Source of the DNA: Nanobdellota archaeon
GTDB taxonomy: Archaea > Nanobdellota > Nanobdellia > CSSed11-243R1
DNA: 64,000 nt
Reading direction: 5' to 3'
Assembly (NCBI GenBank): GCA_021162365.1
Contig: JAGGYW010000013.1
Location: 8,960 to 72,959 of the forward strand
Positions 8,122-57,550 of the stretch are shown here, in pieces (position 1 is the stretch's first letter; each line of letters begins with the position of its first letter). A program made the translations under genes and the position numbers. Under the pieces are notes generated by a model. It made no database searches, was not told the DNA's origin, and saw nothing but the letters and a program-made list of their open reading frames with translations.

Positions 8122-9225
8122 TTAGATAGCACATGTATAAATATCATTATCTTGAATCCACGCTATTCTTCTCCAAAATACAACCGGGTTTGTTTCGTTA
8201 GTTTTTGAGTTTGTTACTTGGATAATTTTTTTGTTGTGTATGTTATATGCGTAAATATCCCATTGATTGTTCTCGAGTTTTTGCCAAACTATGTAGTATG
8301 AAGAAACCCATGGGTTGATATCTGCGCTTTTGTCGCTTGTTATTCTAACTGTCTTGTTGGTAGATAAATCATGGTAGTATATGTTCCAGTTATTGTCTCT
8401 TTCTTGCCAGGCAATTATGTTTTTATATACCATTACATTCTTCATGTTGTTGCCTTTTTTGATTGTGTGTATGTCATCTTTATTAAATGTGTAATAACAC
8501 GAGAGGAAACAGATAACCCCATAATCAGTTGGGCGGTCATAACACGCTTCGGTTTTTTCAGCAGTTTTGTTTGATAGATTGTAATACTTCACCATAGTTT
8601 GATTATTAATACTTGAGATCCATGCTAGATTATTTTTGAATACATCAAGGGATAAGATACTATTTGGATTGTCTTTTATCTCATGTTTGCATTGGTTTTC
8701 AGAAAGGTTTAAGCAGAATATCTTATAAGATCCTACCCTATCTGAATAACATAAAATATTCTCCGATAGTTTTGGCGTACTTGCGCTTCTGGATGGTATA
8801 ACTTCACTTTTGTTAGTGACCATATCAAAGATTTTAATATCAAAGTCTGTTCTAAATAGTAAATATTCATCAAATATATCTCTCTCTTTTGATGACAGAT
8901 ACATCTCCAATTCTTTTGTTTTATTCTTGAGTGCATCATATAGGAACAAATGATAATTTGATCCCTCTTTTGTCTCCCAGACAATTTTATTCTCCCACAT
9001 GTTTAGGTTTACTTTTTTATTATGGTCATTAGTTATTTTGGTAATGTTACATAGTGATTCTGTCATGTTGTTTTCATTTGATTTGTTTATTTCAATTTTT
9101 GATGGTGTATTTGGTACATCGGTTGAGACATTCTCTACTGCTTCTTCTTTTACATTTTGGTGTGCCACACAGCCAAGAGAGAGTATAAGTGTGAATGTAA
9201 GAAAGAGCATTAGTATTTTTTTCAT
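8122..9225 (-). CDS. Secreted beta-propeller (TolB/PD40-like repeat) protein, probably a lipoprotein (signal peptide ending LSLGC).
   Basis: Repeated W-x-x...Y/W blades (KIVWETKEGSNYHLFLYD, NIIAWQERDNNWNIYYHDL, YYIVWQKLENNQWDIYAYN, RRIAWIQDNDIYTC). N-terminal hydrophobic signal with Cys. Confidence 0.55.
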   Translation of the reverse strand: MKKILMLFLTFTLILSLGCVAHQNVKEEAVENVSTDVPNTPSKIEINKSNENNMTESLCNITKITNDHNKKVNLNMWENKIVWETKEGSNYHLFLYDALKNKTKELEMYLSSKERDIFDEYLLFRTDFDIKIFDMVTNKSEVIPSRSASTPKLSENILCYSDRVGSYKIFCLNLSENQCKHEIKDNPNSILSLDVFKNNLAWISSINNQTMVKYYNLSNKTAEKTEACYDRPTDYGVICFLSCYYTFNKDDIHTIKKGNNMKNVMVYKNIIAWQERDNNWNIYYHDLSTNKTVRITSDKSADINPWVSSYYIVWQKLENNQWDIYAYNIHNKKIIQVTNSKTNETNPVVFWRRIAWIQDNDIYTCAI

Positions 9226-10126: not shown

Positions 10127-11422
10127 GTGAGTTGGATGGCAAAAGGATATTTACATTACATAAATCTTGGCTACAAGCCAAAAAAAGACGAGCTTATAGC
10201 TGTATACAAGTTTAAACCAAGGAAAGGGGTGGGTAAGAAAGAAGCAGCGGGAGCAATTGCAGCAGAATCCTCTACAGGAACTTGGACAACACTTTCTACA
10301 ATGACTTTGAAGAGAATGACAAAGATAGGTGCGAAGGTTTACAAAATGTATGGGGACTATGCAGAGATAGCATACCCGCTTGATTTATTTGAATTGGGTA
10401 ATATGCCTGAGATTCTTTCTTCTATTGCTGGAAATATTTTTGGTATGAAGGAAGTTGACACTATAAGGCTTGTTGATGTCAAGTGGCCAACGAAGTTAAA
10501 GAATTCTTTTAAGGGACCGCAGTTTGGTATAAAAGGTGTGAGGAAACTTTTAGGTGTAAAAAAGCGCCCATTAGTTGGCACTATTGTAAAGCCAAAACTT
10601 GGATTGACTTCCAAGGAGCATGCCAAAGTTGCTTATGAAGCGTGGGTTGGTGGATTAGACATAGTAAAAGATGATGAGAATTTAACATCACAGCCATTTA
10701 ACAAGTTTAAGAAAAGAGTTGAAGAAACATTGAAGCTAAAATGGAAGGCAGAAAAAGAAACAGGCGAAAGAAAAATGTATATGGCAAATGTAACAGCAGA
10801 AACAAGAGAGATGCTAAAGCGTGCAAAGTTCCTTAAGGATATGGGAAATGAATATGCAATGGTTGACATTCTTACTGTTGGGTTTGCTGGATTGCAAACT
10901 TTACGTGATGAAATGGATAAACTAAAGCTTGTTTTGCATGGCCACCGTGCTATGCATGCTGCACTTACAAGGAATCCGAATCATGGCATATCTATGTCTG
11001 TGCTTGCAGAGATTTCAAGATTGATTGGAACAGACCAGCTACATGTTGGTACCGCGGTTGGTAAGATGGAAGGCAAGAAGAAAGATATCATCTATATAGT
11101 AGATGATGTTGAAGGGAAGTTCATAAGGAAGAGGGGGCACATGCTAGCAGAGAACTGGGGAAAGATAAAACCTATGTTTGCGGTTTGTTCTGGTGGATTG
11201 CATCCAGGATTAGTTCCACCACTAGTTAAGATGTTTGGCGAGGACATAATTATTCAAGCTGGTGGAGGGGTGCATGGACATCCGAGAGGAACAAGAAAGG
11301 GTGCAACTGCAATGAGGCAAGCAGTAGATGCAACTCTGAGAGGAGTCCCACTTAGAGAATATGCAAAGACACACAAGGAGTTAAAAGAAGCAATTGAAAA
11401 GTGGGGAGTTTACAAGGGGTGA
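10127..11422 (+). CDS. rbcL: Ribulose-1,5-bisphosphate carboxylase/oxygenase, archaeal form III large subunit.
   Basis: Family signatures GAIAAESSTGTWTT, GGLDIVKDDENLTSQPF, HGHRAMHAALTR. Length 431 aa. Confidence 0.9.
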   Translation: MSWMAKGYLHYINLGYKPKKDELIAVYKFKPRKGVGKKEAAGAIAAESSTGTWTTLSTMTLKRMTKIGAKVYKMYGDYAEIAYPLDLFELGNMPEILSSIAGNIFGMKEVDTIRLVDVKWPTKLKNSFKGPQFGIKGVRKLLGVKKRPLVGTIVKPKLGLTSKEHAKVAYEAWVGGLDIVKDDENLTSQPFNKFKKRVEETLKLKWKAEKETGERKMYMANVTAETREMLKRAKFLKDMGNEYAMVDILTVGFAGLQTLRDEMDKLKLVLHGHRAMHAALTRNPNHGISMSVLAEISRLIGTDQLHVGTAVGKMEGKKKDIIYIVDDVEGKFIRKRGHMLAENWGKIKPMFAVCSGGLHPGLVPPLVKMFGEDIIIQAGGGVHGHPRGTRKGATAMRQAVDATLRGVPLREYAKTHKELKEAIEKWGVYKG

Positions 11423-12920
11423 TATAGTGTTTCAGCTGAGAGCAAAGATTGTTGATATTGAAACGGGCGGCATGCCTGTTATTTCTTTAAATGAAGATTT
11501 TGCTAAAGAAAATGATTTTCACAATATGGATAGGGTGGTAGTTAGTTTTAATGGGAAATCTCTTGTTGCAGCAGTTGATACTTCTGAAAAGATAGTTTCA
11601 AAGGAAGAGGTAGGTATATTTGAAGATGTGTGGAAAAAGTTGAAAATTAAGAATGGGGACATTGTTGAGATTACTCCAGTTGGTAAGCCGGAGTCGACAA
11701 AGTATATACGCAAGAAGATGGATAGGGAAGAACTTTTCGATAAAGAGATTAGAGCGATTGTGAAAGACATTGTTGATGAAAAGTTGACAGATGTTGAAAT
11801 GGCAGCATTTGTTGCTGCGTCATATATGGAAGGATTAAGTATGTCGGAGACGACAAGCCTAACTCGTGCAATTGTAGAAACGGGTGGTCGTTTGAAGTTA
11901 AGGAAGAAAATAATTGCGGATAAGCATTCCATTGGTGGAGTGCCCGGAAACAGAGTTACTATGGTGTTGGTCCCCATAATTGCATCTCTTGGAATCACAA
12001 TCCCAAAAACATCTAGTCGTGCTATAACTTCCCCTTCAGGTACAGCGGACACCATGGAAGTTTTAGCAAACGTTAGTTTCTCAACGGAAGAATTAACTAA
12101 AATTGTAGAAAAGACAAATGGGTGCATTGCATGGGGTGGGGCAATTAATCTTGCGGCTGCGGATGACAAGCTTATCAGAATTAGACACCCACTTTCTTTG
12201 GATCCTGAAGGTTTAATGCTCGCATCTGTTATGGCAAAGAAAGTTGCAGTTGGGGCTACTCATGTTATATTTGACTTGCCAATAGGTGAGGAAGCAAAGC
12301 TCCAATCTTTAGGTGAGGCGAGACACCTTGAGAGAGAATTTACAAAACTTGCAGAGAAATTTGGTATTAAGGTTGAAACTTTAGTGACAGATGGAAACAA
12401 CCCAATTGGCAATGGGATCGGACCCAATCTTGAAGCAAGAGATGTTCTTTGGCTTTTAAAGAACGATAGAAGGGGACCTTTAGATTTGAGGAGAAAGTCT
12501 GTCTTGCTTGCAGGTAAACTTCTCGAATTAGTTGGTTATGCAAAGGAAGGAGAAGGGGAGAAAATTGCGGATGCACAGATAGACAACGGAAAGGCGTATC
12601 AGAAGATGAAAGAGATAATTGAAGCGCAGGGTGGAAATCCAAATGTCAATCCAGAAGATTTGCATGTTGGGGAGTTTACATGTGATTATGAAGCTGAAAA
12701 GTATGGTAGAATAACAAATATGAGTAATCATGCTCTCGCGAAGATAGCAAGGGCTGCAGGCTCTCCAGTGGATAAGGAAGCAGGCATTTACATCTATAAG
12801 AAGTATGGTTCTAATGTTAAGCAAGGAGAAAAAATATTTACTGTATACTCTAAAAGTGAAAGGCGCATAGAGCGTGCTATAAAGCTTATGAAGGAATTGA
12901 ATCCTGTTACAATTGAGTGA
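11394..12920 (+). CDS. deoA: AMP phosphorylase (thymidine-phosphorylase family with N-terminal extension).
   Basis: Pyrimidine-nucleoside phosphorylase core (SIGGVPGNRVTMVLVPIIASLG, TSSRAITSPSGTADT) plus the N-terminal domain typical of archaeal AMPpase. Start overlaps the rbcL stop. Confidence 0.85.
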   Translation: MKSGEFTRGDIVFQLRAKIVDIETGGMPVISLNEDFAKENDFHNMDRVVVSFNGKSLVAAVDTSEKIVSKEEVGIFEDVWKKLKIKNGDIVEITPVGKPESTKYIRKKMDREELFDKEIRAIVKDIVDEKLTDVEMAAFVAASYMEGLSMSETTSLTRAIVETGGRLKLRKKIIADKHSIGGVPGNRVTMVLVPIIASLGITIPKTSSRAITSPSGTADTMEVLANVSFSTEELTKIVEKTNGCIAWGGAINLAAADDKLIRIRHPLSLDPEGLMLASVMAKKVAVGATHVIFDLPIGEEAKLQSLGEARHLEREFTKLAEKFGIKVETLVTDGNNPIGNGIGPNLEARDVLWLLKNDRRGPLDLRRKSVLLAGKLLELVGYAKEGEGEKIADAQIDNGKAYQKMKEIIEAQGGNPNVNPEDLHVGEFTCDYEAEKYGRITNMSNHALAKIARAAGSPVDKEAGIYIYKKYGSNVKQGEKIFTVYSKSERRIERAIKLMKELNPVTIE

Positions 12921-19401: not shown

Positions 19402-19475
19402 GGGCCGATAGCTTAACCTGGTAAAGCGCCGCCCTCGCACGGCGGAGACTCGGGGTTCAAATCCCCGTCGGTCCA
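19402..19475 (+). tRNA. tRNA-Ala (anticodon CGC). Intron-less. G3:U70 identity pair. CCA not encoded.
   Basis: Manual cloverleaf. Acceptor GGGCCGA/TCGGTCC, anticodon loop CTCGCAC, T-arm CGGGG-TTCAAAT-CCCCG. Confidence 0.85.
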
Positions 19476-19554
19476 CTAAAACCTTTTTCTTAAAAAGAAA
19501 AAGCTTTACCAAAAAGAAGGAATTGGAGAAGTCTTGAGGAAAAGAAGTTCTAGA
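19476..19554. repeat. tRNA 3' trailer carrying an AT-rich palindromic mini-hairpin (ctttttcttaaaaagaaaaag). Member of the TTTCTT..AAGAAA hairpin family seen elsewhere in the window.
   Basis: Seen in sequence. Confidence 0.4.
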
Positions 19555-20001: not shown

Positions 20002-20229
20002 TAAGTAGTTTTCAAGCTCTCTCTTCTAAATTCAGTGTATTCCTTCACCGTTTGAGATACGTTCATAATACCACTACTATCAAGTAGTGATTACGTATTT
20101 ATATATTTTTCGATAAAGTTTTCCTTCTTTTAGCAAAGCTCTTTTTAGTGCAGGTTTTCTCGTAGAGAAAAAGTGCTAAAGAAAGAAATTTTTCTCTTTG
20201 GTAAAGCTTTCTCTTTCTAAGAGAAAGGT

Positions 20230-29448: not shown

Positions 29449-32400
29449 TCAACAGTTCATGGTTATTGTGATAGTTTGAGTATAACTACTTGCGGCTTGG
29501 TATTGTGGTACTCCTACTCCAAAGTAGGTTGTTATCGAATTTCCTGCTCCAAGATTTGTTGTTATCGCAGCATCTGTTGTTGTCAAGTCAGTTCCGCTTC
29601 CGTATGTAAATGCACTTGTACTCCATTCTGTGTTCCCAACTGCGAATGTGTTTCCTCCTCCATCACTCCAATCTGTTCCTCTAATGGTAACATTTGTTGC
29701 TGTTCCACTTCCAGAGTTGGTAATAGTAACATTTTGGTTTGTGCTTCCAGTATTTGTTCCTGGATTCACACTTCCAAAACTAATTGTGTTTGTGGATAGA
29801 GAAACTACACATGTTTGTGTGTTTAAAATTGTTAGATTTGTGAGTGGGTCATAATAATTGCTATATGTATTTGTTCCGTCCACATCTATTGCCCTGCATC
29901 TCAAATCAACATTTGTTTGGTCAGGGATGTTGGATACGTTCCATACAAATGTGCTTCCTTCGGTATGGTTCCCTATAGTTCTCCATTTTTTAACTAATCC
30001 CCAAGCACATTGGCTACATGATTGGCAGGATGTTTGGCTTGTGTATGTGTCACAATTTAAGTTTCCATTACAAGATTGGGGTACACTTTTTATGCCTGTG
30101 ATGTTCACACAGTCTAGGTAAGCATCATCTCTATTTCCCGAAAACTCTGTTTCAAATCTAATTGTAACCGAGTCATCAAATGTGCAATCGCTTGGAGTAA
30201 TTGTTACACACTGTTCATCTGTGCATCCATTTAGCCATTGGCCTTCCGTACCTTTTTCGTTTGGGCAGTAGGTCCACACTATGTTTCCATCACATTTTAG
30301 GTCTATACACTCTCCCGCCTCTATGCTTGTATAATATGCGGACCAGCTTATGGTTACGTTGGTATATCCTGTAAAGTTGAATGACTTTTCTGTATATGAG
30401 GTAGTGGTATCGTCTTGAAGGTGCCATGAGTAACTTCCTCCACTACTCCCATCATCTTGACAATTACTTGTTACACTACTCCAGTCCGAATCTGATCCTG
30501 GATCAGTCCATCCGTCTGGTCCCGATTCCCAGCCAGTATAGTAAATATTTGTCTTAGATGTTCCTCCTCCCCAGCTGCATCCTGCTGATGAACAATTACT
30601 ACAACTGCTCGAATCGCTGCATGCACTACAGCTTCCATTGTTGTAGCAGGAGTAATCACTATAATTTGCTTCTATAACGTACGTAATTGTATCTCCGTCC
30701 GGATCAGTGGAGCCGGAGCAAGTTATATTTACGCTGTTAGAGAAAGTTCTGTTACAGCTTCCTCCGTCACAACTTATGTTGGTAGGGGTGGTTGGTGGGC
30801 CCTCTTCTCCAAATAGATATTGGGTAGTTGAGTCTCTGCTCTGACTAATTGGGAATATAGCTCTATAGGCACTGCCGTCTTGTTCAAATTGAATCTGTGT
30901 GGCACTTAAGATTTGAGTCCAAATTCCATTTGAGTATTTGTATACCATACCGTTTGCATGGGATAAGTTGGTTACTTCTATGTATAGTTTTTCTGTGCCT
31001 TGGTCCCAATTTGAGTTTCCTGTAATATTGAATTTTATGTCTTTACCTGTATTTCTCTGTATTTTGTATATAAATTCTTTTGAGTCAAAACCAGTTATGG
31101 TACAATTTTCTACAGCAGTTATTGTTGCGGGATTCTCATGAAGAGAGTATATATTTTTTACGGTTGCATTTGAATTTCCGTCATAAAGGACAGTTATTGT
31201 AAATATATCATCATAGTTTTGTATGGAATTTGCGGAATACCAGAATTGATCGAAATAATCACTTCCATTCGTTTCTATATCTATTGTTGAGCTGTCTTGA
31301 TCTGTGGCTCCACTTGGCATTGCCTTTATTATCTTTCCGAATGCTAAATCGTTTGTAGTTGATCCATACCAACTAACCCACGAATTACTTGATTGATCAA
31401 ATACGTCATACACAGAATTTGAAGTTGAGGTTGTTGTGTCTGTCGGTCCCGCTTTGCTTCCGCCAGTATAATGTAAGCCATATGAATCATATCCACTTGT
31501 AGTATTTGTGTCATTTACCACGGTTAAAATTCGTAACCCATCATTGTATGTTCCAGCAAAGTTTATTGTTTTTATTCTTCCTACATAATAGTCATTATAG
31601 AAGTACCAATCTATGTATATCTGGCCCGACCAGTTTACCTCTACAGCGACTCTATAAGAGCCATTTTCTAAAATTGTTATATCTGTTGGAGTTACTTGGT
31701 TCGAGATTATATCGCTTATTGGTACGGTGATAAGTGGTTTGTATACTAATGCTACATAATCTGCTATGTAGCCTTGAGATAATTCTACGTTTGGATCGTA
31801 TTCTTTTGACCAGAAGTCTTTAACGTACCCCCATGATGTATAGGATGTGTTGTTACTGATACATACTTTGTATTTGTTTGTTTCCACAGTTATACATGTT
31901 CCATCTGCACTTACTACATATGCTGGGTCATTTGCAGATATATGGAGGGTGTAATTCTGTCCAGGTGTAACGTCAGCAATTTTTGTCCAGCTTCCTTCAC
32001 ATTCTCTTGAGCTAAAATTCCAATCTTTACATTTGTATATGAAGTTCCCCTTTGGTGTTATGGTTACATTCCCTTCAACAAATTTAACCTTTGGATCTAT
32101 TGCAAAAGATTGAACAGCATCTTGGATATTTGATGGAATATCTAAATCTAAGTCAACTATCTCATTTAATGTGGATTGTATCTCCACATTCTTTAGAGTT
32201 ATTGATTTAACAATGTGGTTTCTTGGAATTAATTTGATAGTATAGTTCCCCTTCTTTACGCTGATTGGAGTTCCTTCGGAGATAGCAATTAGCTTGTTAT
32301 TTTGGAATACTTTCGCAGTTGTTGGTATGTCTTTATTTTCAAAGTCCTTAATTTTTGGTGTGATTACTATGTACATCCTACCAAAATATGACGCGCTCAT

Positions 32401-33426
32401 ATTTGTTTCGTTTTTTGGGAGTTGGAATACAAATACCTCTGATTGATTTCCAACTTGAAGTTCAAAGCGGCTTCCATCCCATTTGTAAATGGTGAGAGTT
32501 ATGTTCTCATTAGGTGGTGCTGGGTATTTACTAAACCCATATGTTACGTTACCTATGATGTAGAATGGTTCCTCTTTTGTAGAGTTATGTGAAAAAACTA
32601 TTACAAAATTATCATTTTTCCAAGAAGTAGACAAAATTTTTACATCAAAGTTTTCGTCATCTTTTATCTTTTCATAATATTTTTCACTGCTCATGTTTTG
32701 GATCGCAGAAACATTTTCTTCTTGTACCTTTACAAATGAATACTGAATTTTGAATATCTTTACTTTTCCATTTCCATGTAATTCAAAGTAGAGTTTATAT
32801 GAAGAATAATTTAACTTTTTATCAAGTAGGTTACATGTTTCTTCGCAGACATAGTTAAGGGGCACAACTCTTGTAGCTTGTGTTGGGGTTTCTCCTCCAG
32901 TTTCGCCTTCTACACCCCCTTTTTCTTTTTGAGGGAGTGCCTTTTTTACATCTTTTATAAGGAATGCCGTCACACCTTTCATGGCAAGGAAGTCTTTCGT
33001 GTTTGCAATTAGGTATCTGTTTCCATCTTTATCCTCGAGGTATATTTGCGCGTCTCCGTCCCCTTCATATACTCCGGAAATTTTTATGGAACTTAAATAG
33101 CCCTTCACTTTGTTTTGTGGTTCCCAATTTACATATTTTGAATTTTCTACAATGATGTTTACATCATCTGTGAAGGAGATAATGTTGCTTTCGGATGTTA
33201 CGAATCCTTCAATTGATGGGGATATGTGTGTTACAAGTGTGTATGATACAATTGAGAGTAGGATGAAGACAATGAAGGGAAGAAATGGTCCCGCCCTCTT
33301 CCCTTTAAGTAACCTTTCTCTTATCATTCCATCAGTTACTTTCTTTTTGATGCCAATTATTTCGAGGGACTTTATCGTTTTTGGGTTTTGAAGATTAACT
33401 TTATACAGTGTTTTCTTGCCTTCCAC
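29449..33426 (-). CDS. Giant (1325 aa by track) surface protein. N-terminal signal-anchor (most plausible start ATG at 33327: MIRERLLKGKRAGPFLPFIVFILLSIV...). Huge Thr/Ser/Asn-rich extracellular region with Cys-rich modules. C-terminal domain is homologous to the 164-aa protein at 28463-28957.
   Basis: ORF track (the track start is GTG at 33426). See finding on the in-frame wHTH-like extension up to 33588. Confidence 0.7.
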   Translation of the reverse strand: MEGKKTLYKVNLQNPKTIKSLEIIGIKKKVTDGMIRERLLKGKRAGPFLPFIVFILLSIVSYTLVTHISPSIEGFVTSESNIISFTDDVNIIVENSKYVNWEPQNKVKGYLSSIKISGVYEGDGDAQIYLEDKDGNRYLIANTKDFLAMKGVTAFLIKDVKKALPQKEKGGVEGETGGETPTQATRVVPLNYVCEETCNLLDKKLNYSSYKLYFELHGNGKVKIFKIQYSFVKVQEENVSAIQNMSSEKYYEKIKDDENFDVKILSTSWKNDNFVIVFSHNSTKEEPFYIIGNVTYGFSKYPAPPNENITLTIYKWDGSRFELQVGNQSEVFVFQLPKNETNMSASYFGRMYIVITPKIKDFENKDIPTTAKVFQNNKLIAISEGTPISVKKGNYTIKLIPRNHIVKSITLKNVEIQSTLNEIVDLDLDIPSNIQDAVQSFAIDPKVKFVEGNVTITPKGNFIYKCKDWNFSSRECEGSWTKIADVTPGQNYTLHISANDPAYVVSADGTCITVETNKYKVCISNNTSYTSWGYVKDFWSKEYDPNVELSQGYIADYVALVYKPLITVPISDIISNQVTPTDITILENGSYRVAVEVNWSGQIYIDWYFYNDYYVGRIKTINFAGTYNDGLRILTVVNDTNTTSGYDSYGLHYTGGSKAGPTDTTTSTSNSVYDVFDQSSNSWVSWYGSTTNDLAFGKIIKAMPSGATDQDSSTIDIETNGSDYFDQFWYSANSIQNYDDIFTITVLYDGNSNATVKNIYSLHENPATITAVENCTITGFDSKEFIYKIQRNTGKDIKFNITGNSNWDQGTEKLYIEVTNLSHANGMVYKYSNGIWTQILSATQIQFEQDGSAYRAIFPISQSRDSTTQYLFGEEGPPTTPTNISCDGGSCNRTFSNSVNITCSGSTDPDGDTITYVIEANYSDYSCYNNGSCSACSDSSSCSNCSSAGCSWGGGTSKTNIYYTGWESGPDGWTDPGSDSDWSSVTSNCQDDGSSGGSYSWHLQDDTTTSYTEKSFNFTGYTNVTISWSAYYTSIEAGECIDLKCDGNIVWTYCPNEKGTEGQWLNGCTDEQCVTITPSDCTFDDSVTIRFETEFSGNRDDAYLDCVNITGIKSVPQSCNGNLNCDTYTSQTSCQSCSQCAWGLVKKWRTIGNHTEGSTFVWNVSNIPDQTNVDLRCRAIDVDGTNTYSNYYDPLTNLTILNTQTCVVSLSTNTISFGSVNPGTNTGSTNQNVTITNSGSGTATNVTIRGTDWSDGGGNTFAVGNTEWSTSAFTYGSGTDLTTTDAAITTNLGAGNSITTYFGVGVPQYQAASSYTQTITITMNC

Positions 33427-33644: not shown

Positions 33645-33670
33645 AAGCACTTTTCTTTCTTAAAAAGAAA

Positions 33671-33692
33671 GAAACCTGCACTAAAGAAAGAA
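33671..33692. repeat. 22-nt exact repeat gaaacctgcactaaagaaagaa (second copy at 39280-39301), flanked by a TTTCTTTCTT-AAAA-AGAAAGAAA hairpin.
   Basis: Exact string match between the two loci. Confidence 0.6.
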
Positions 33693-33789
33693 ATTACTCT
33701 TTCCACAACTTACGCTTTGACAAGACTTCGTCTCGGCATAAGCGACGGAGTCGCTCTGTCTCTTCTTCCTAAAAAAGAAAGGGCAGAAG

Positions 33790-34047
33790 AGGGCCCGGTG
33801 GGACTTCCAAGCACTCGCCAAGAGTTTCTCTCTTAGCGCAGGTTCTCTCTTTTCAAAGAGAGAAAGTGCTTTCGAACCCACGACCCCTTGCTTGCCACGC
33901 TCCCTCTTTCTTTCCCGAGGGTTTCTTTCTCGGGAGAAAGAAAGGCTCTTAGGAGGCAAGTGCTCTATCCAAGCTTTGCCACGCACCCATTCTGCCAGCG
34001 CTTTTCCGTGCACGCTTTTTTAAAGGGTGCGTTTGAGCTACGGGCCC
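33790..34047 (-). tRNA. Candidate tRNA-Arg (anticodon CCT) with multiple introns: D-loop, anticodon loop, T-loop 59/60. The variable region is atypically long (possible extra intron), so the model is tentative.
   Basis: Manual parse. GGGCCCG-TA-GCTC...CTTGGATA-GAGC-A-CTTGC-CTCCTAA[intron]GCAAG-...-GTGGG-TTCGAA[intron]T-CCCAC-CGGGCCC-T. Introns contain gtttctttctcgggagaaagaaagg-type hairpins. Confidence 0.45.
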
Positions 34048-34101
34048 TTTTGTACAATAACAATCCAATTCTTTTTAAAATTTAACTTTCTAAAATTAGA
34101 T

Positions 34102-34704
34102 ATGGGTGAGCTGATAAGGAATTTTAATTTCTTGAAAGAAAATGGGTTTAATGTAGCTGAATTTGGATTTGCTAAGACGATAGGAGATGCAATAGACATT
34201 GCGGATAGGATAGGGTATCCTATAGTACTTAAAATTCCTTCACAGATGCATAAAAGTAAAGTTGGTGGCGTTTTGACGAATATTCATAATTTAACTGACT
34301 TAAAGACTTTGAGTAAGGATTTTGTAGATACCTTAGAGGAGAGAGGGGTTTTCTTTGATGGGTTAATTGTTCAGAAGCAAATAAAGGGTGTCGAGTTAAT
34401 TGTCGGACTAAAGGAGGATAAAGTTTTTGGAAGAGTAATTTTGCTTGGCAGTGGAGGTACTCTTGCAGAGATGATTAATGATGTTACATTTAGGGTTTGT
34501 CCAATTACAGAGAGAGATGCGGTGGAGATGGTTGGAGAGATAAAGGCAAAAGCACTTCTGTCAAAGGAAGGGGTATCCTTAAATGAGCTTACAGATTTGC
34601 TTGTTAAAGTTTCTAAGATAAATATAAAAGAGATGGATTTGAATCCTGTGATTTGTAATTCTAATGGATGTTGGATTGTTGACGCAAGAATTCTTAAGGT
34701 GTAA
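34102..34704 (+). CDS. ATP-grasp domain protein, acetate--CoA ligase (ADP-forming) beta-subunit-like. Start corrected to MGELIRNF.
   Basis: IGYPIVLKIPSQMHKSKVGGV... typical of the ACD beta/ATP-grasp_5 family. Weak call. Confidence 0.5.
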   Translation: MGELIRNFNFLKENGFNVAEFGFAKTIGDAIDIADRIGYPIVLKIPSQMHKSKVGGVLTNIHNLTDLKTLSKDFVDTLEERGVFFDGLIVQKQIKGVELIVGLKEDKVFGRVILLGSGGTLAEMINDVTFRVCPITERDAVEMVGEIKAKALLSKEGVSLNELTDLLVKVSKINIKEMDLNPVICNSNGCWIVDARILKV

Positions 34705-35971
34705 GCCGTTCTGGGTCTCTTGGGGTTAGGCTTGCCTCTCTTATGTTTTGTAGTCCAAGAATTAACATGGTTAGTCTTTCTATGCCGATTGCAAATCCGC
34801 CATGGGGTGGGATACCATATTTGAAGAATCTTAAGTGATCGAATGTTTCCGGATTTAGTCCCTTTTCAATCATTTGAGATTTCCTTTTTTCATAGTTTTC
34901 TTCACGTAATCCACCAGTTGTTATTTCAATACCTTTGTATAATAAATCGAAAGACAGCGTGTTCTCCCCTTCTTTTTTTGCATAGAATACTTTGTGCTTG
35001 AATGGGAAGTGTGTTAGGAATACGAAATCGGAATCGTGCTCTTTTTTAGCCCATTCGCAGAGTGCTTTTTCCCCTGCGTGTGTTAAATCACCTTCCTCTG
35101 TTTCGACGCCCATTTTTTCTACAATTTTTTTCGCTTCTCCAAATTTTATTCGTGGTATTTTCTTTGGGAAGTTGAGAGTTACATTATAAACTTGGATTGC
35201 ATTTTCGTTTTTGATTTTTTCAAACAGATACCTTAACATTTTTTCTTCAAAATTTAATAGTTCATCGAAGTTATCTGTAATCCACTCAACATCAAATGAG
35301 TTATATTCACATAAATGTCTTATTGTGTGGTGTGGTTCCGCCCTGTAAACATTCCCTATTTCATATACCTTTTCTAATCCACCACTTAGTGCGAGCTCTT
35401 TGTAAAATTGAGGAGATTGTGCTAAGTATGCCTTTTTGTCAAAGTAATCAACTTCGAAGTATTCTGTGCCCCCCTCTGTGGGTACTCCAACAAGTTTGGA
35501 GGTGTTTATTCTAATAAACTCATTTTCATCGCAGAATCTTGAAAGGGTATTTATTATTTTGCTTTGGAGCTTAAAGATTTCATTTACTTTTGGATTGCGG
35601 ATATCTATAAATCTCCAATCTAATCTTTTGCTAAGATCCGTTTCAATCTTCCCAGAGATATCAATTGGGATTGGTGTTTCCGCTTTGGAGAGAATTTTTA
35701 TTTCACTTGGGATTAATTCTTTTCCTCCTCGCGCTTCTTTGCTGTCAATCATTTTTCCTTTAACGAAGATATAGGATTCTTGTGTCGGTTCTAATGAGAA
35801 TACTTCGTCCGGCACTTTTGCTTTTGGCATAGTTATCTGCAGTGTTCCTGTCGAATCTCTGAGAATGATGAACTTAATTTTTTTCAAGTCTCTGTAACTT
35901 TCGACCCACCCAGCTACAGCTACACTTTGCAAATTAAATGCATCTTTAATAGGAACTCGTTTTTCTAACAT
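34694..35971 (-). CDS. aspS: Aspartyl-tRNA synthetase, archaeal type (class IIb; AsnRS cannot be fully excluded).
   Basis: N-terminal OB fold, LAQSPQFYKELA, motif 2/3 (FRAE-like NVYRAEP, GGFAIGIERLTMLILG). Confidence 0.75.
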   Translation of the reverse strand: MLEKRVPIKDAFNLQSVAVAGWVESYRDLKKIKFIILRDSTGTLQITMPKAKVPDEVFSLEPTQESYIFVKGKMIDSKEARGGKELIPSEIKILSKAETPIPIDISGKIETDLSKRLDWRFIDIRNPKVNEIFKLQSKIINTLSRFCDENEFIRINTSKLVGVPTEGGTEYFEVDYFDKKAYLAQSPQFYKELALSGGLEKVYEIGNVYRAEPHHTIRHLCEYNSFDVEWITDNFDELLNFEEKMLRYLFEKIKNENAIQVYNVTLNFPKKIPRIKFGEAKKIVEKMGVETEEGDLTHAGEKALCEWAKKEHDSDFVFLTHFPFKHKVFYAKKEGENTLSFDLLYKGIEITTGGLREENYEKRKSQMIEKGLNPETFDHLRFFKYGIPPHGGFAIGIERLTMLILGLQNIREASLTPRDPERLTP

Positions 35972-39125: not shown

Positions 39126-39348
39126 ACTCTAAAGTTAAAATAGTTGCTTTAATAAATCTTTCGCAGCACCTTCTTAGAAAGAAGCTGCACCAAGAAAATC
39201 TTTCTCTTAAAAAGAAAGCTTAACTAAAGAAATTTTTTTCTCTTAATGCATGTTCTCTTTTCTAAAGAGAAAATGCTAAGAAACCTGCACTAAAGAAAGA
39301 ACATTTCACTTTTCTTTTTTGTAAAGCTTTTTAAGAAAAAGGTTTTAA
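39126..39348. repeat. Intergenic block packed with TTTCTT..AAGAAA mini-hairpins (cttcttagaaagaag; tctcttttctaaagaga) and the 22-nt repeat (39280-39301).
   Basis: Seen in sequence. Same motif family as the tRNA introns. Confidence 0.45.
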
Positions 39349-39422
39349 TGGGCCCGCTGGGATTTGAACCCAGGTCCCAGCCTCCGCAGGGCTGTATTCT
39401 ATCCAAGCTAAACTACGGGCCC
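39349..39422 (-). tRNA. tRNA-Arg (anticodon GCG). Intron-less. CCA not encoded.
   Basis: Manual cloverleaf. Acceptor GGGCCCG/CGGGCCC, anticodon arm CAGCC-CTGCGGA-GGCTG, T-arm CTGGG-TTCAAAT-CCCAG. Confidence 0.8.
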
Positions 39423-39503
39423 AAATTTAAAAAGCAGAGTTTGCTTTATAAATGTTGATTTATGCTTCTCTCCAGTGACGAAATCTTTTTAACTTAACTA
39501 TTT

Positions 39504-56605: not shown

Positions 56606-57550
56606 ATGGTTCTTGCAAGGCTGACTGAGGCACAGAAGAGACTTTTCATTAGACAGCACTATGGAATAGCAGGGAATCATTCTGCAGTTAAGTTGTGTGG
56701 CTGGACGAAAAAATCTCTTCATGATAAAGGCGTTTGCTACAAGCAAAAATTTTATGGAATAGAATCCCATAGGTGTCTTCAATGCACACCTGTTATTAAT
56801 TGGTGCACACAAAATTGTGACTTTTGCTGGAGGTTAGGGAGATATCAATACCCAGAGTTAGAAGGGTGGGATGAGCCAAAGGAAATTGTTGACAAAATGA
56901 TCGAAGCGCAGAGGAAGCTACTTTCTGGCTTTCCCGGTGCTGATGTAAATATGAAAAAATGGAAGGAAGCACAAAATCCAACTCAAGTAGCAATTTCCCT
57001 CGCAGGAGAGCCAACGATATATCCAAAGCTTGGAGAATTAATTGCTGAATTTCATAAAAGAGGTATGACAACTTTTTTGGTAACAAATGGGACTTTGCCT
57101 GAGAGACTTGAAAATTTAAATCCGCTTCCAACACAACTTTATGTTACTATTGCAGCGCCAGATAAAGAAACTTGTATGGGTTTATGTCATCCGAATTTGC
57201 CTGACGCTTGGGAGCGTTTGATGAAAACTCTTGAGTTGCTTCCAAAATTGAACACTCGCAAAGTAATTCGTCTTACTCTTGTCAAAGGAGTTAATATGAA
57301 GTATCCTGAAAAATACGCCGAGCTAATAAAAAAAGCAAAACCACATTTCATTGAGGCAAAGGGATATATGTCTGTTGGCTCTGCAAGGCAGAGATTGGGA
57401 TTAGAGCACATGCCAACTCATGAAGAAATTGTTGAATTTTCTAAGGAGCTTTCCAGACATTTGGGAGTTCCAATTGCTGATGAGCACAAGCCAAGCAGAG
57501 TTGTTTTGCTAACTAATCTGCCAAAGGAAAAGTGGAAGGTTAACCGCTGA
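56606..57550 (+). CDS. taw1: tRNA 4-demethylwyosine synthase (radical SAM; Taw1/TYW1).
   Basis: Radical-SAM CTQNCDFCWR (Cx3Cx2C) plus family-typical N- and C-terminal blocks. Confidence 0.8.
   Translation: MVLARLTEAQKRLFIRQHYGIAGNHSAVKLCGWTKKSLHDKGVCYKQKFYGIESHRCLQCTPVINWCTQNCDFCWRLGRYQYPELEGWDEPKEIVDKMIEAQRKLLSGFPGADVNMKKWKEAQNPTQVAISLAGEPTIYPKLGELIAEFHKRGMTTFLVTNGTLPERLENLNPLPTQLYVTIAAPDKETCMGLCHPNLPDAWERLMKTLELLPKLNTRKVIRLTLVKGVNMKYPEKYAELIKKAKPHFIEAKGYMSVGSARQRLGLEHMPTHEEIVEFSKELSRHLGVPIADEHKPSRVVLLTNLPKEKWKVNR

Follow-up and report, generated by a model that had tools for sequence, protein, structure and literature searches.

The segment at 33790-34047 of the window (the window being the whole 64-kb stretch of DNA that was analysed) is very probably a functional, single-copy tRNA-Arg(CCU) gene that decodes AGG and is composed of four collinear exons and three protein-spliced introns. 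A sequence-only reading of the same DNA had noted about four nucleotides too many between the anticodon stem and the T stem; judged from the corresponding junctions in related genomes, this surplus is a mis-set intron boundary and a fourth intron is absent.

Gene structure and spliced product

The gene lies on the minus strand and fills the segment exactly, with G1 at 34047 and the discriminator base U73 at 33790. The strand had gone unmentioned in the sequence-only reading. The acceptor stem GGGCCCG/CGGGCCC pairs across the 258 nt, as had been proposed, which was evident both by direct reading and from ARAGORN analysis of the spliced product. Insertions occupy the D loop at 14/15, the anticodon loop at 37/38 and the T loop at 59/60 (Table 1). 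Removal of the three segments in silico, at the intron coordinates listed in the table, yielded a product of 75 nt, GGGCCCGUAGCUCAGCUUGGAUAGAGCACUUGCCUCCUAAGCAAGGGGUCGUGGGUUCGAAUCCCACCGGGCCCU, which ARAGORN identified as tRNA-Arg(cct) with a perfect cloverleaf in which all stems are fully paired. The acceptor, D, anticodon and T stems comprise 7, 4, 5 and 5 bp, the anticodon and T loops are both of 7 nt, and the variable loop is the 5-nt GGGUC. The product also carries U8, A14, G18G19, A21, U33, G53-U54-U55-C56, A58 and C61, together with the tertiary pair G15:C48. Its G+C content is 63%, compared with approximately 36% for the window, and no CCA is encoded at the end of exon 4. The earlier assignment to tRNA-Arg with a CCT anticodon stands, as does the placing of one intron in each of three loops (D, anticodon, and T at 59/60).

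Table 1. Coordinates of the tRNA-Arg(CCU) locus and of the other genes of the window referred to in the text.
Feature	Position	Strand	Details
AspRS gene	34694-35971	-	
A/T box AAATTTTAAAAA, candidate archaeal TATA element	34072..34083	-	Ends 24 nt upstream of G1; read from sequence
Exon 1 GGGCCCGUAGCUCA	34034..34047	-	Acceptor 5' strand, U8, A9, D-stem 5' strand, A14
Intron 1, D loop 14/15	33975..34033	-	59 nt; in-silico splice and fold
Exon 2 GCUUGGAUAGAGCACUUGCCUCCUA	33950..33974	-	Remaining D-loop bases, 3' half of D stem, 5' half of anticodon stem, CCU anticodon within loop positions 32-37
Intron 2, canonical 37/38	33893..33949	-	57 nt; ends in GCGUGGCA, followed by A
Exon 3 AGCAAGGGGUCGUGGGUUCGAA	33871..33892	-	A38, 3' half of anticodon stem (GCAAG), variable loop GGGUC, 5' half of T stem, T-loop bases 54-59
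Intron 3, T loop 59/60	33804..33870	-	67 nt; two internal hairpins
Exon 4 UCCCACCGGGCCCU	33790..33803	-	U60, T-stem 3' strand, acceptor 3' strand, U73
T-rich tract UUUCUUUUUU, candidate archaeal oligo-T terminator	33771..33780	-	10 nt downstream of gene
Arg(UCG) tRNA gene	27174-26927		3 introns
Val(UAC) tRNA gene	55698-55519		2 introns: D loop and 53/54
Gly(GCC) tRNA gene	56541-56364		2 introns
Ala(CGC) tRNA gene	19402-19476		Visible to ARAGORN and Rfam
Arg(GCG) tRNA gene	39348-39423		Visible to ARAGORN and Rfam

The unspliced gene was missed both by ARAGORN and by Rfam (RF00005, at the gathering score and at E values up to 10). Such a result is to be expected because the gene contains three introns, and it is no argument against its presence. 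The only tRNA genes of the window visible to these programs were those for Ala(CGC) and Arg(GCG).

Other kinds of interrupted gene can be discounted. A split or permuted tRNA gene was ruled out, as the four exons are collinear on one strand within 258 nt. The ribozyme core of group I and group II introns amounts to approximately 200 nt or more, and self-splicing introns of these groups were likewise ruled out on the basis of the lengths observed here (57-67 nt) and of zero matches to Rfam intron families. The tRNA-Trp intron of haloarchaea encodes a box C/D sRNA; an intron-encoded sRNA of this type was rejected for the present gene because neither the C box (RUGAUGA) nor the D box (CUGA) is present in introns 1-3, and no snoRNA match was found over the gene. 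A motif shared between introns, GCGYKSRCGRAAAG, was also considered as a source of box C/D or K-turn-like GA pairs. This was rejected, the motif being the 5' strand of a second hairpin.

Orthologs and conservation

The host genome is that of a low-GC (about 36%) member of the DPANN/Nanoarchaeota. The AspRS encoded in the window is 100% identical to a protein of an NCBI metagenome-assembled genome labelled 'Nanoarchaeota archaeon', while its closest relatives, derived from metagenome bins and 'Nanoarchaeia', exhibit 64-85% identity. Related tRNA loci were reached through these AspRS homologs. A conserved gene order, consisting of AspRS, an ATP-grasp_5 gene, the tRNA and a gene for a large surface-type protein, was found in seven distinct orthologs (L001, L004, L005, L023, L089, L090 and L092), L001 being identical to L002 and L003 and counted once. 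All seven spliced in silico to a 75-mer recognised by ARAGORN as Arg(cct).

Exon sequences of the orthologs match those of the window at 68-74 of 75 positions (91-99%), with introns that are 51-77% identical by global alignment. Exon 1 is the same in all orthologs compared, and identical copies of the last 21 nt of exon 2 occur in 83 stretches of public genomes, mostly of DPANN archaea. A scan of metagenomes with a gapped pattern of exon 2, intron and exon 3 retrieved a single locus, L089. Among Arg(CCU) genes with the same exon 2, the number of introns ranges from 0 to 3 across Aenigmatarchaeota, Nanohaloarchaea, Woese-/Pacearchaeota and Micrarchaeota; three interrupt the gene in L015, and introns of the D loop and the T loop are present in L086. 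The whole series from 0 through 1 and 2 to 3 introns is represented in relatives whose AspRS proteins are 64-85% identical.

Splice-site motifs

The geometry used for drawing splice sites consisted of an outer helix, a 4-bp central helix, two bulged exon bases and the cut. The return strand begins with the inner helix and continues with the four nucleotides that pair with the central helix; two bulged intron bases then precede the cut, and a single bulged exon base separates it from the outer helix. Pairing models for 37/38 and 59/60 were tested on the orthologs and on two paralogous tRNAs. In the junctions given below, a slash marks the cut.

For intron 3, positions 54-57 of the T loop pair with intron positions -6 to -3 (UGGA), and the 3' bulge is A G/U60. 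The model, comprising the T stem, the central helix and a 5-bp inner helix, was scored on nine sequences (eight Arg(CCU) genes and the Arg(UCG) gene of the window), in which 94.4% of cells were paired and 7 of 14 pairs had changed on both sides. Registers shifted by 1-3 columns reached no more than 51%, and no shuffle equalled the observed values. The 5' site is set in an internal loop of 3x1 (2x2 in L023) and not in a clean bulge, and the motif is therefore a relaxed one.

For intron 2, ended at the second of two GCAAG strings (see below), the central helix is formed by positions 32-35 and intron positions -6 to -3 with three of four base pairs, and the 3' bulge is C A/A38. In this model 91.4% of cells were paired (80.6% in the central helix), as against 56% or less in shifted registers; these counts, like those for intron 3, lean toward the models because the models were drawn from the same sequences that were scored, and for both introns the shifted-register controls stay far below them. 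In the central helix at 37/38, each of the seven intron-bearing Arg(CCU) genes has one mismatch and the Arg(UCG) and Gly genes have none. Strict bulge-helix-bulge drawings for intron 2 at 36/37, 38/39 or 39/40, or with the first GCAAG, were rejected, as none gave a conserved 4-bp helix with 3-nt bulges. A perfect CUCC:GGAG helix that can be drawn in the window was also rejected; it entails a 4-nt bulge and is absent from L001, L004 and L092.

At introns 2 and 3, exon and intron bases have changed on both sides and stayed paired in evolution, and the comparison supports 37/38 and 59/60 as bulge-helix-bulge-type splice sites. Intron 1 is without covariation support because it is present in the window sequence only. 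In the minimum-free-energy fold, G10, C11 and U12 pair with GGC and are followed by a 3-nt bulge, C13 A14/A. The inner helix is of 8 bp (ACGCACCC/GGGUGCGU) and the outer helix is lacking at the 3' site, so that on the predicted fold intron 1 is a relaxed HBh'-type motif, a form that has been described for D-loop introns (PMC5829648). None of the three introns has a strict hBHBh' motif. All three have a relaxed HBh' or hBH motif, of the kinds cut by broad-specificity EndA (PMC8450103, PMC4033280, PMC5829648), and every cut restores the sequence of the orthologs. The 3-nt bulge of intron 2 is placed between its central helix and the anticodon stem, and that of intron 3 between its central helix and the T stem.

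The D-loop junction

Intron 1 is absent from all seven distinct orthologs, in which the 10-nt D loop reads AGNUUGGAUA. A cut at 14/15 restores the D loop AGCUUGGAUA, identical to that of L005; a cut at 13/14 is equivalent in sequence. We infer from these products that 14/15 is the exact junction. An alternative cut one or two positions further 3' (15/16-like) would yield a 12-nt D loop, AAAGCUUGGAUA, and is considered improbable. Such a cut would bring the gene into line with the Arg(UCG), Gly and Val genes of the window, in whose D-loop introns the D-stem 5' strand (positions 10-13) forms the central helix, positions 14 and 15 are bulged and the intron follows. A drawing of this kind is feasible in Arg(CCU), with GCUC facing UGGC and three of four positions paired, and the resulting 77-nt product was accepted by ARAGORN. 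However, the 10-nt D loop is common to all seven orthologs and L005 carries the exact product of the 14/15 cut. Moreover, cutting at 14/15 keeps the pair G15:C48, where the alternative sets A15 opposite C48, and allows a clean 3-nt bulge to be drawn between helices of 3 bp and 8 bp.

Evidence for a functional gene

The conserved exons, the diverged introns and a compensatory change in the T stem among the orthologs (U50:A64 to C50:G64) argue for a functional gene rather than a chance resemblance or a relic. It is very unlikely that the locus is a decaying pseudogene, wrecked by three insertions, with AGG read by another tRNA such as Arg(UCU). In favour of a pseudogene are the invisibility of the locus to standard finders, the imperfect splice motifs of all three introns and two open reading frames, one of 109 aa called over the L005 ortholog and one of 110 aa overlying the window gene. 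Against this, the cloverleaf is flawless, and exon conservation holds across eight sequences, despite the divergence or replacement of their introns. Stem changes among the orthologs are compensatory, and intron ends co-vary with the exon bases with which they pair. In L001, L004, L005, L023, L089, L090 and L092 the AAATTTTAAAAA box recurs at the same distance of 24 nt, while the spacer sequence itself diverges. Finally, the same design is common to four of the six tRNA genes of the window, including its only Gly and Val tRNA genes.

The 3' end of intron 2

A spacer of 9 nt, instead of 4-5 nt, had previously been counted between the anticodon stem and the T stem, with either a fourth mini-intron or a mis-set boundary offered in explanation. 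The precursor reads GCGUGGCAAGCAAGGGGUCGUGGG at this point, and the stretch GGCAAGCAAGG contains two GCAAG strings that overlap by one G. The 9-nt spacer arises only if the first of these is assigned to positions 39-43. If the second GCAAG forms the stem strand, the anticodon loop becomes the 7-nt CUCCUAA and the variable loop the 5-nt GGGTC. The 3' end of intron 2 then lies 4 nt further 3' than had been read, and the spliced 37/38 junction is predicted to be CUCCUA/AGCAAGGGGUC.

Uninterrupted genes show what the mature sequence should be. The L090 ortholog has no anticodon intron; CTCCTAAGCAAGGGGTC is contiguous there, within the longer context CTTGCCTCCTAAGCAAGGGGTCG, and no extra CAAG is present. 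L093, with an AspRS 64% identical to that of the window, has a wholly uninterrupted Arg(CCU) gene. Among the loci fetched by the exon-2 pattern, CTCCTA is followed directly by AGCAAGGGGTC in 50 genomes, and at 24 further loci an intron intervenes, after which the sequence picks up at AGCAAGG. The tandem GCAAGCAAGG was found in mature position at none of the loci fetched by this pattern. The mature sequence around positions 37-48 is fixed by L090, L093 and the 50 uninterrupted genomes. In the orthologs L001, L023 and L092 the precursor reads GTAAGCAAG, and the first GCAAG is missing. The near-repeat G-Y-A-A-G at the intron end is accounted for by the splice motif, since G(-3) pairs with C32 and Y A/A38 forms the 3-nt bulge.

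It is scarcely credible that the first GCAAG is the stem strand, which would leave the variable region at 9 nt or call for the removal of CAAG as a fourth mini-intron of 4 nt: the 79-nt version is also accepted by ARAGORN as tRNA-Arg(cct), the minimum-free-energy fold of the precursor pairs the anticodon stem CUUGCC with the first GGCAAG and not the second, and the G-Y-A-A-G string kept by all seven intron-bearing orthologs would make the shifted stem possible in each, but the L090 junction contains neither an intron nor the extra CAAG, 50 other genomes match that junction, the string is already explained by the splice motif, and no bulge-helix-bulge can be drawn around an intron of 4 nt. To our knowledge, protein-spliced introns as short as this are not known in archaea. 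The comparison with orthologous loci, which the sequence-only reading had itself suggested, decides the 37/38 boundary, and all seven syntenic orthologs splice to the same type of 75-mer. Of the two explanations offered, the mis-set boundary is borne out by the comparative junctions and by the far higher pairing of the second-GCAAG model relative to shifted registers. The fourth mini-intron falls on the evidence of L090, of L001, L023 and L092, of the 50 uninterrupted genomes and of the pairing register, and the spacer of 9 nt reduces to 5 nt with the second GCAAG.

Proposed processing

The A/T box is a putative promoter element and the T-rich tract a putative terminator, judged from their sequence and position. 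A 258-nt precursor would be transcribed from the former, terminated at the latter (33780-33771) and trimmed at its ends. A broad-range EndA would then cut the 3-nt bulges, in a bulge-helix-bulge at 37/38 and in relaxed versions of it at 14/15 and 59/60, and the four exons would be joined by an RtcB-type ligase. As none is encoded, CCA would be added, and the tRNA body would be a standard one of 75 nt whose variable loop has 5 nt. We infer the splicing enzymes and the order of cuts by analogy with known archaeal systems.

EndA types that cut relaxed motifs are the alpha-beta heterotetramer, epsilon2 and the loop-bearing alpha4 forms. Pfam searches of 30 open reading frames of the 64-kb window revealed no domain of EndA (tRNA-intron endonuclease) or of RtcB. 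Cleavage of relaxed motifs requires EndA types that carry a loop, and such enzymes are known from DPANN archaea (PMC5829648, PMC3239211). ARMAN-1 and ARMAN-2 possess an epsilon2 EndA, and an alpha4 EndA with an L3 loop has been found in DPANN (PMC3239211, PMC5829648, PMC4033280).

Related introns in different tRNA genes

Of six tRNA genes in the window, four are split and were all missed by ARAGORN and Rfam, and the six genes contain ten introns between them. The Arg(UCG), Val and Gly genes likewise splice to clean tRNAs. Introns of the window are built from common modules, namely a G+C clamp and polypyrimidine/polypurine hairpins, and can be grouped into sequence families. The four D-loop introns (Arg(CCU), Val, Gly and Arg(UCG)) have a common 5' end, CGCACC/CAGCACC-UUU, and intron 1 of Arg(CCU) resembles the 37/38 intron of the Gly gene. 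Similarity z-scores for the introns are inflated, because mononucleotide shuffles were applied to low-complexity sequence rich in A/G and C/T, and statements on intron families rest here on the strongest pairs and on BLAST E-values.

A BLAST alignment of 44 nt with 93% identity (E = 2e-12) links the core of the window's Arg(CCU) 37/38 intron to the intron at the equivalent site of Arg(UCG) in L004, whereas orthologous Arg(CCU) introns at this site are only 55-69% identical and comprise at least three sequence types. This difference points to an exchange of introns between genes, and introns appear to have been swapped between tRNA genes. Large-scale transposition of tRNA introns has been attributed to the Thermoproteales by Fujishima et al. 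(2010, Mol Biol Evol 27:2233), as relayed in PMC4090602 and PMC4033280. The near-identical intron cores in different tRNA genes resemble the transposition outlined in those two sources. The present evidence differs in that it derives from a few genes in one window and a few further loci and is not genome-wide.

A possible trace of such an event was observed at the Arg(UCG) gene. The 90-nt T-loop intron of the window gene aligns with the 3' trailer of its L001 ortholog, which is without a T-loop intron, at a score of 52 against a null of 15.8 +/- 2.6. The end of the L001 trailer reads as a decayed 3' exon, matching at 11 of 13 positions (p about 0.007), and the position of this copy corresponds to that of the real 3' exon in the window, adjoining a hexapeptide-transferase gene. 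The trailer looks like the footprint of an intron gain or loss that may have proceeded through duplication or insertion of a short 3' exon, and it is offered as a lead only. Inspection by eye of the trailers of the Arg(CCU) genes of the window and of the intronless L093 gave no convincing decayed copy of the 3' exon, so that the Arg(UCG) gene of L001 is the only one to show it.

The Arg(CCU) gene may be a snapshot of unusually fast turnover of tRNA introns in a thermophile-like DPANN clade, a suggestion that is advanced tentatively. Under rapid turnover, the D-loop intron may be a lineage-specific gain from a family shared with Val, Gly and Arg(UCG). If this were true, intron mobility in the style of the Thermoproteales would extend to DPANN, with a concrete mechanism suggested. 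Close relatives with 0, 1, 2 and 3 introns in one gene provide material for the study of intron gain, loss and movement.

Comparison with known systems

Archaeal tRNA genes with up to three introns have been documented (PMC8450103, PMC4033280, PMC5829648). In the Thermoproteales, genes with multiple introns are known from Pyrobaculum, Thermofilum, Caldivirga and their relatives (Sugahara et al. 2007/2008, as summarised in PMC4090602; PMC8450103, PMC4033280). The present gene resembles these in having up to three short protein-spliced introns, one at 37/38 and others at non-canonical sites in the D and T arms, in its relaxed bulge-helix-bulge motifs, in being missed by gene finders and in the occurrence of related introns in different tRNA genes. 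It differs in that the host is not a crenarchaeon but of the DPANN/Nanoarchaeota type with a G+C content of 36%, and in that the introns are long (57-67 nt, and up to 92 nt in the orthologs) and contain polypyrimidine/polypurine hairpins.

Within the DPANN superphylum, tRNAs with multiple introns have been listed for N. equitans and ARMAN, and lineages with EndA insertions exhibit more tRNA gene disruption (PMC4033280, PMC5829648). The present gene shares with these organisms both the superphylum and the disruption of tRNA genes. It differs from the split tRNAs of N. equitans, as its exons are collinear at one locus and are neither split nor permuted. In a non-exhaustive reading of the literature, no published account of a DPANN tRNA gene with three introns was encountered. 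Since multi-intron tRNAs are already documented in archaea, DPANN included, the gene is ordinary in kind. Its significance is rather that a lineage of the Nanoarchaeota type also has tRNA genes with three introns, a number that is the known maximum and has been recorded best in the Thermoproteales, and that the clade may help to predict which substrates the DPANN splicing endonuclease accepts.

There is also a consequence for annotation. With four split genes invisible to the finders, genomes of this clade would seem to lack essential tRNAs and would score as less complete than they are. In at least one public record, that of L005, a spurious open reading frame of 109 aa has been placed over the Arg(CCU) ortholog.

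Additional intron-containing tRNA genes

Three further tRNA genes interrupted by more than one intron were located in the window (see table). The introns of tRNA-Arg(UCG) comprise 38 nt in the D loop (15/16), 45 nt at 37/38 and 90 nt in the T loop (59/60), and their removal in silico yields a clean tRNA of 75 nt. This gene is presumably the first multi-intron tRNA implied by the sequence-only reading, which had described tRNA-Arg(CCU) as the second. tRNA-Val(UAC) carries an intron of 49 nt in the D loop (15/16) and one of 58 nt at 53/54, between the T stem and T loop; tRNA-Gly(GCC) carries introns of 61 nt in the D loop (15/16) and 45 nt at 37/38. None of the three unspliced genes was called by either ARAGORN or the Rfam tRNA model. 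A radical-SAM gene for wyosine formation (Taw1-like, 56606-57550) adjoins tRNA-Gly(GCC).

Features identified in the window, with strand and supporting observation
Feature	Position	Strand	Observation
tRNA-Arg(UCG), 3 introns	27174-26927	-	in-silico splicing
tRNA-Val(UAC), 2 introns	55698-55519	-	spliced form accepted by ARAGORN
tRNA-Gly(GCC), 2 introns	56541-56364	-	
Palindrome TTCTATTGGATWATCCAATAG	~33650-33625	-	conserved at same place in L001, L004, L005, L023, L089
110-aa ORF over tRNA-Arg(CCU)	33681-34013	-	
Perfect polypyrimidine/polypurine hairpins	19483-19503, 20155-20171, 20207-20227, 33652-33674, 39253-39271		
Form-III-like RuBisCO large subunit and adjoining AMP/thymidine-phosphorylase-family gene	10127-12920	+	

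Relationships among introns

Over 44 nt, the tRNA-Arg(CCU) intron at 37/38 in the window (33947-33904) shares 93% identity with its counterpart at 37/38 in the tRNA-Arg(UCG) gene of the related sequence L004 (8323-8366); the intron in the tRNA-Arg(CCU) gene of L004 belongs to another type. An exact stretch of 18 nt is common to the 37/38 intron of tRNA-Arg(UCG) in the window and the tRNA-Arg(CCU) introns of L004 and L092, another relative. From these sequence matches, introns appear to have been swapped between the two arginine genes, which lie approximately 7 kb apart. The D-loop intron of tRNA-Arg(CCU) also resembles the 37/38 intron of tRNA-Gly(GCC), the likeness being CACCCUUU...AAAGCGUGYACGGAAA...GGGUGYGUG.

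The T-loop intron of tRNA-Arg(UCG) in the window (27030-26941) is homologous to the 3' trailer of the same gene in the related sequence L001 (18357-18495), which is without a T-loop intron. At the end of the trailer, adjoining a hexapeptide-transferase gene, the 3' exon recurs in decayed form as ATCCCAGCAGCCC (L001 18479-18491); this arrangement may represent a footprint of intron gain or loss via 3'-exon duplication.

Among other tRNA-Arg(CCU) genes, the long 37/38 introns of six Aenigmatarchaeota-type loci (L006, L011, L015, L033, L079 and L082) have GGAGGUGAACAGA ... (A/G)UGAUGA(C) in common and a CUGA-like box at the start. These introns may encode a box C/D sRNA, for which the haloarchaeal tRNA-Trp intron, encoding such an sRNA, is a suggested parallel. 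In loci L021, L052 and L063, a short intron interrupts the T arm at another position.

Surroundings of tRNA-Arg(CCU) and other features

The palindrome lies between tRNA-Arg(CCU) and a 1325-aa surface-type ORF (29449-33426, minus strand) and probably serves that gene as an operator or promoter element. In the public record of the related sequence L005, a 109-aa gene (8432-8761) without a Pfam match is called across the orthologous tRNA; this and the 110-aa ORF of the window are spurious protein calls upon an unrecognised tRNA.

The tabulated hairpins (e.g. CUUUCUU nnn AAGAAAG) are of the same type as those inside the tRNA introns; they are situated just 3' of three tRNA genes, namely tRNA-Ala, tRNA-Arg(CCU) and tRNA-Arg(GCG), as well as within one intergenic region. 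Of the 12 such hairpins in the whole 64 kb, 11 fall within the introns or trailers of tRNA genes or within this same intergenic region. They could act as terminators or in processing, or could constitute a small family of repeats.

The RuBisCO and phosphorylase-family genes form a nucleotide-salvage pair, an arrangement common in DPANN and other archaea.
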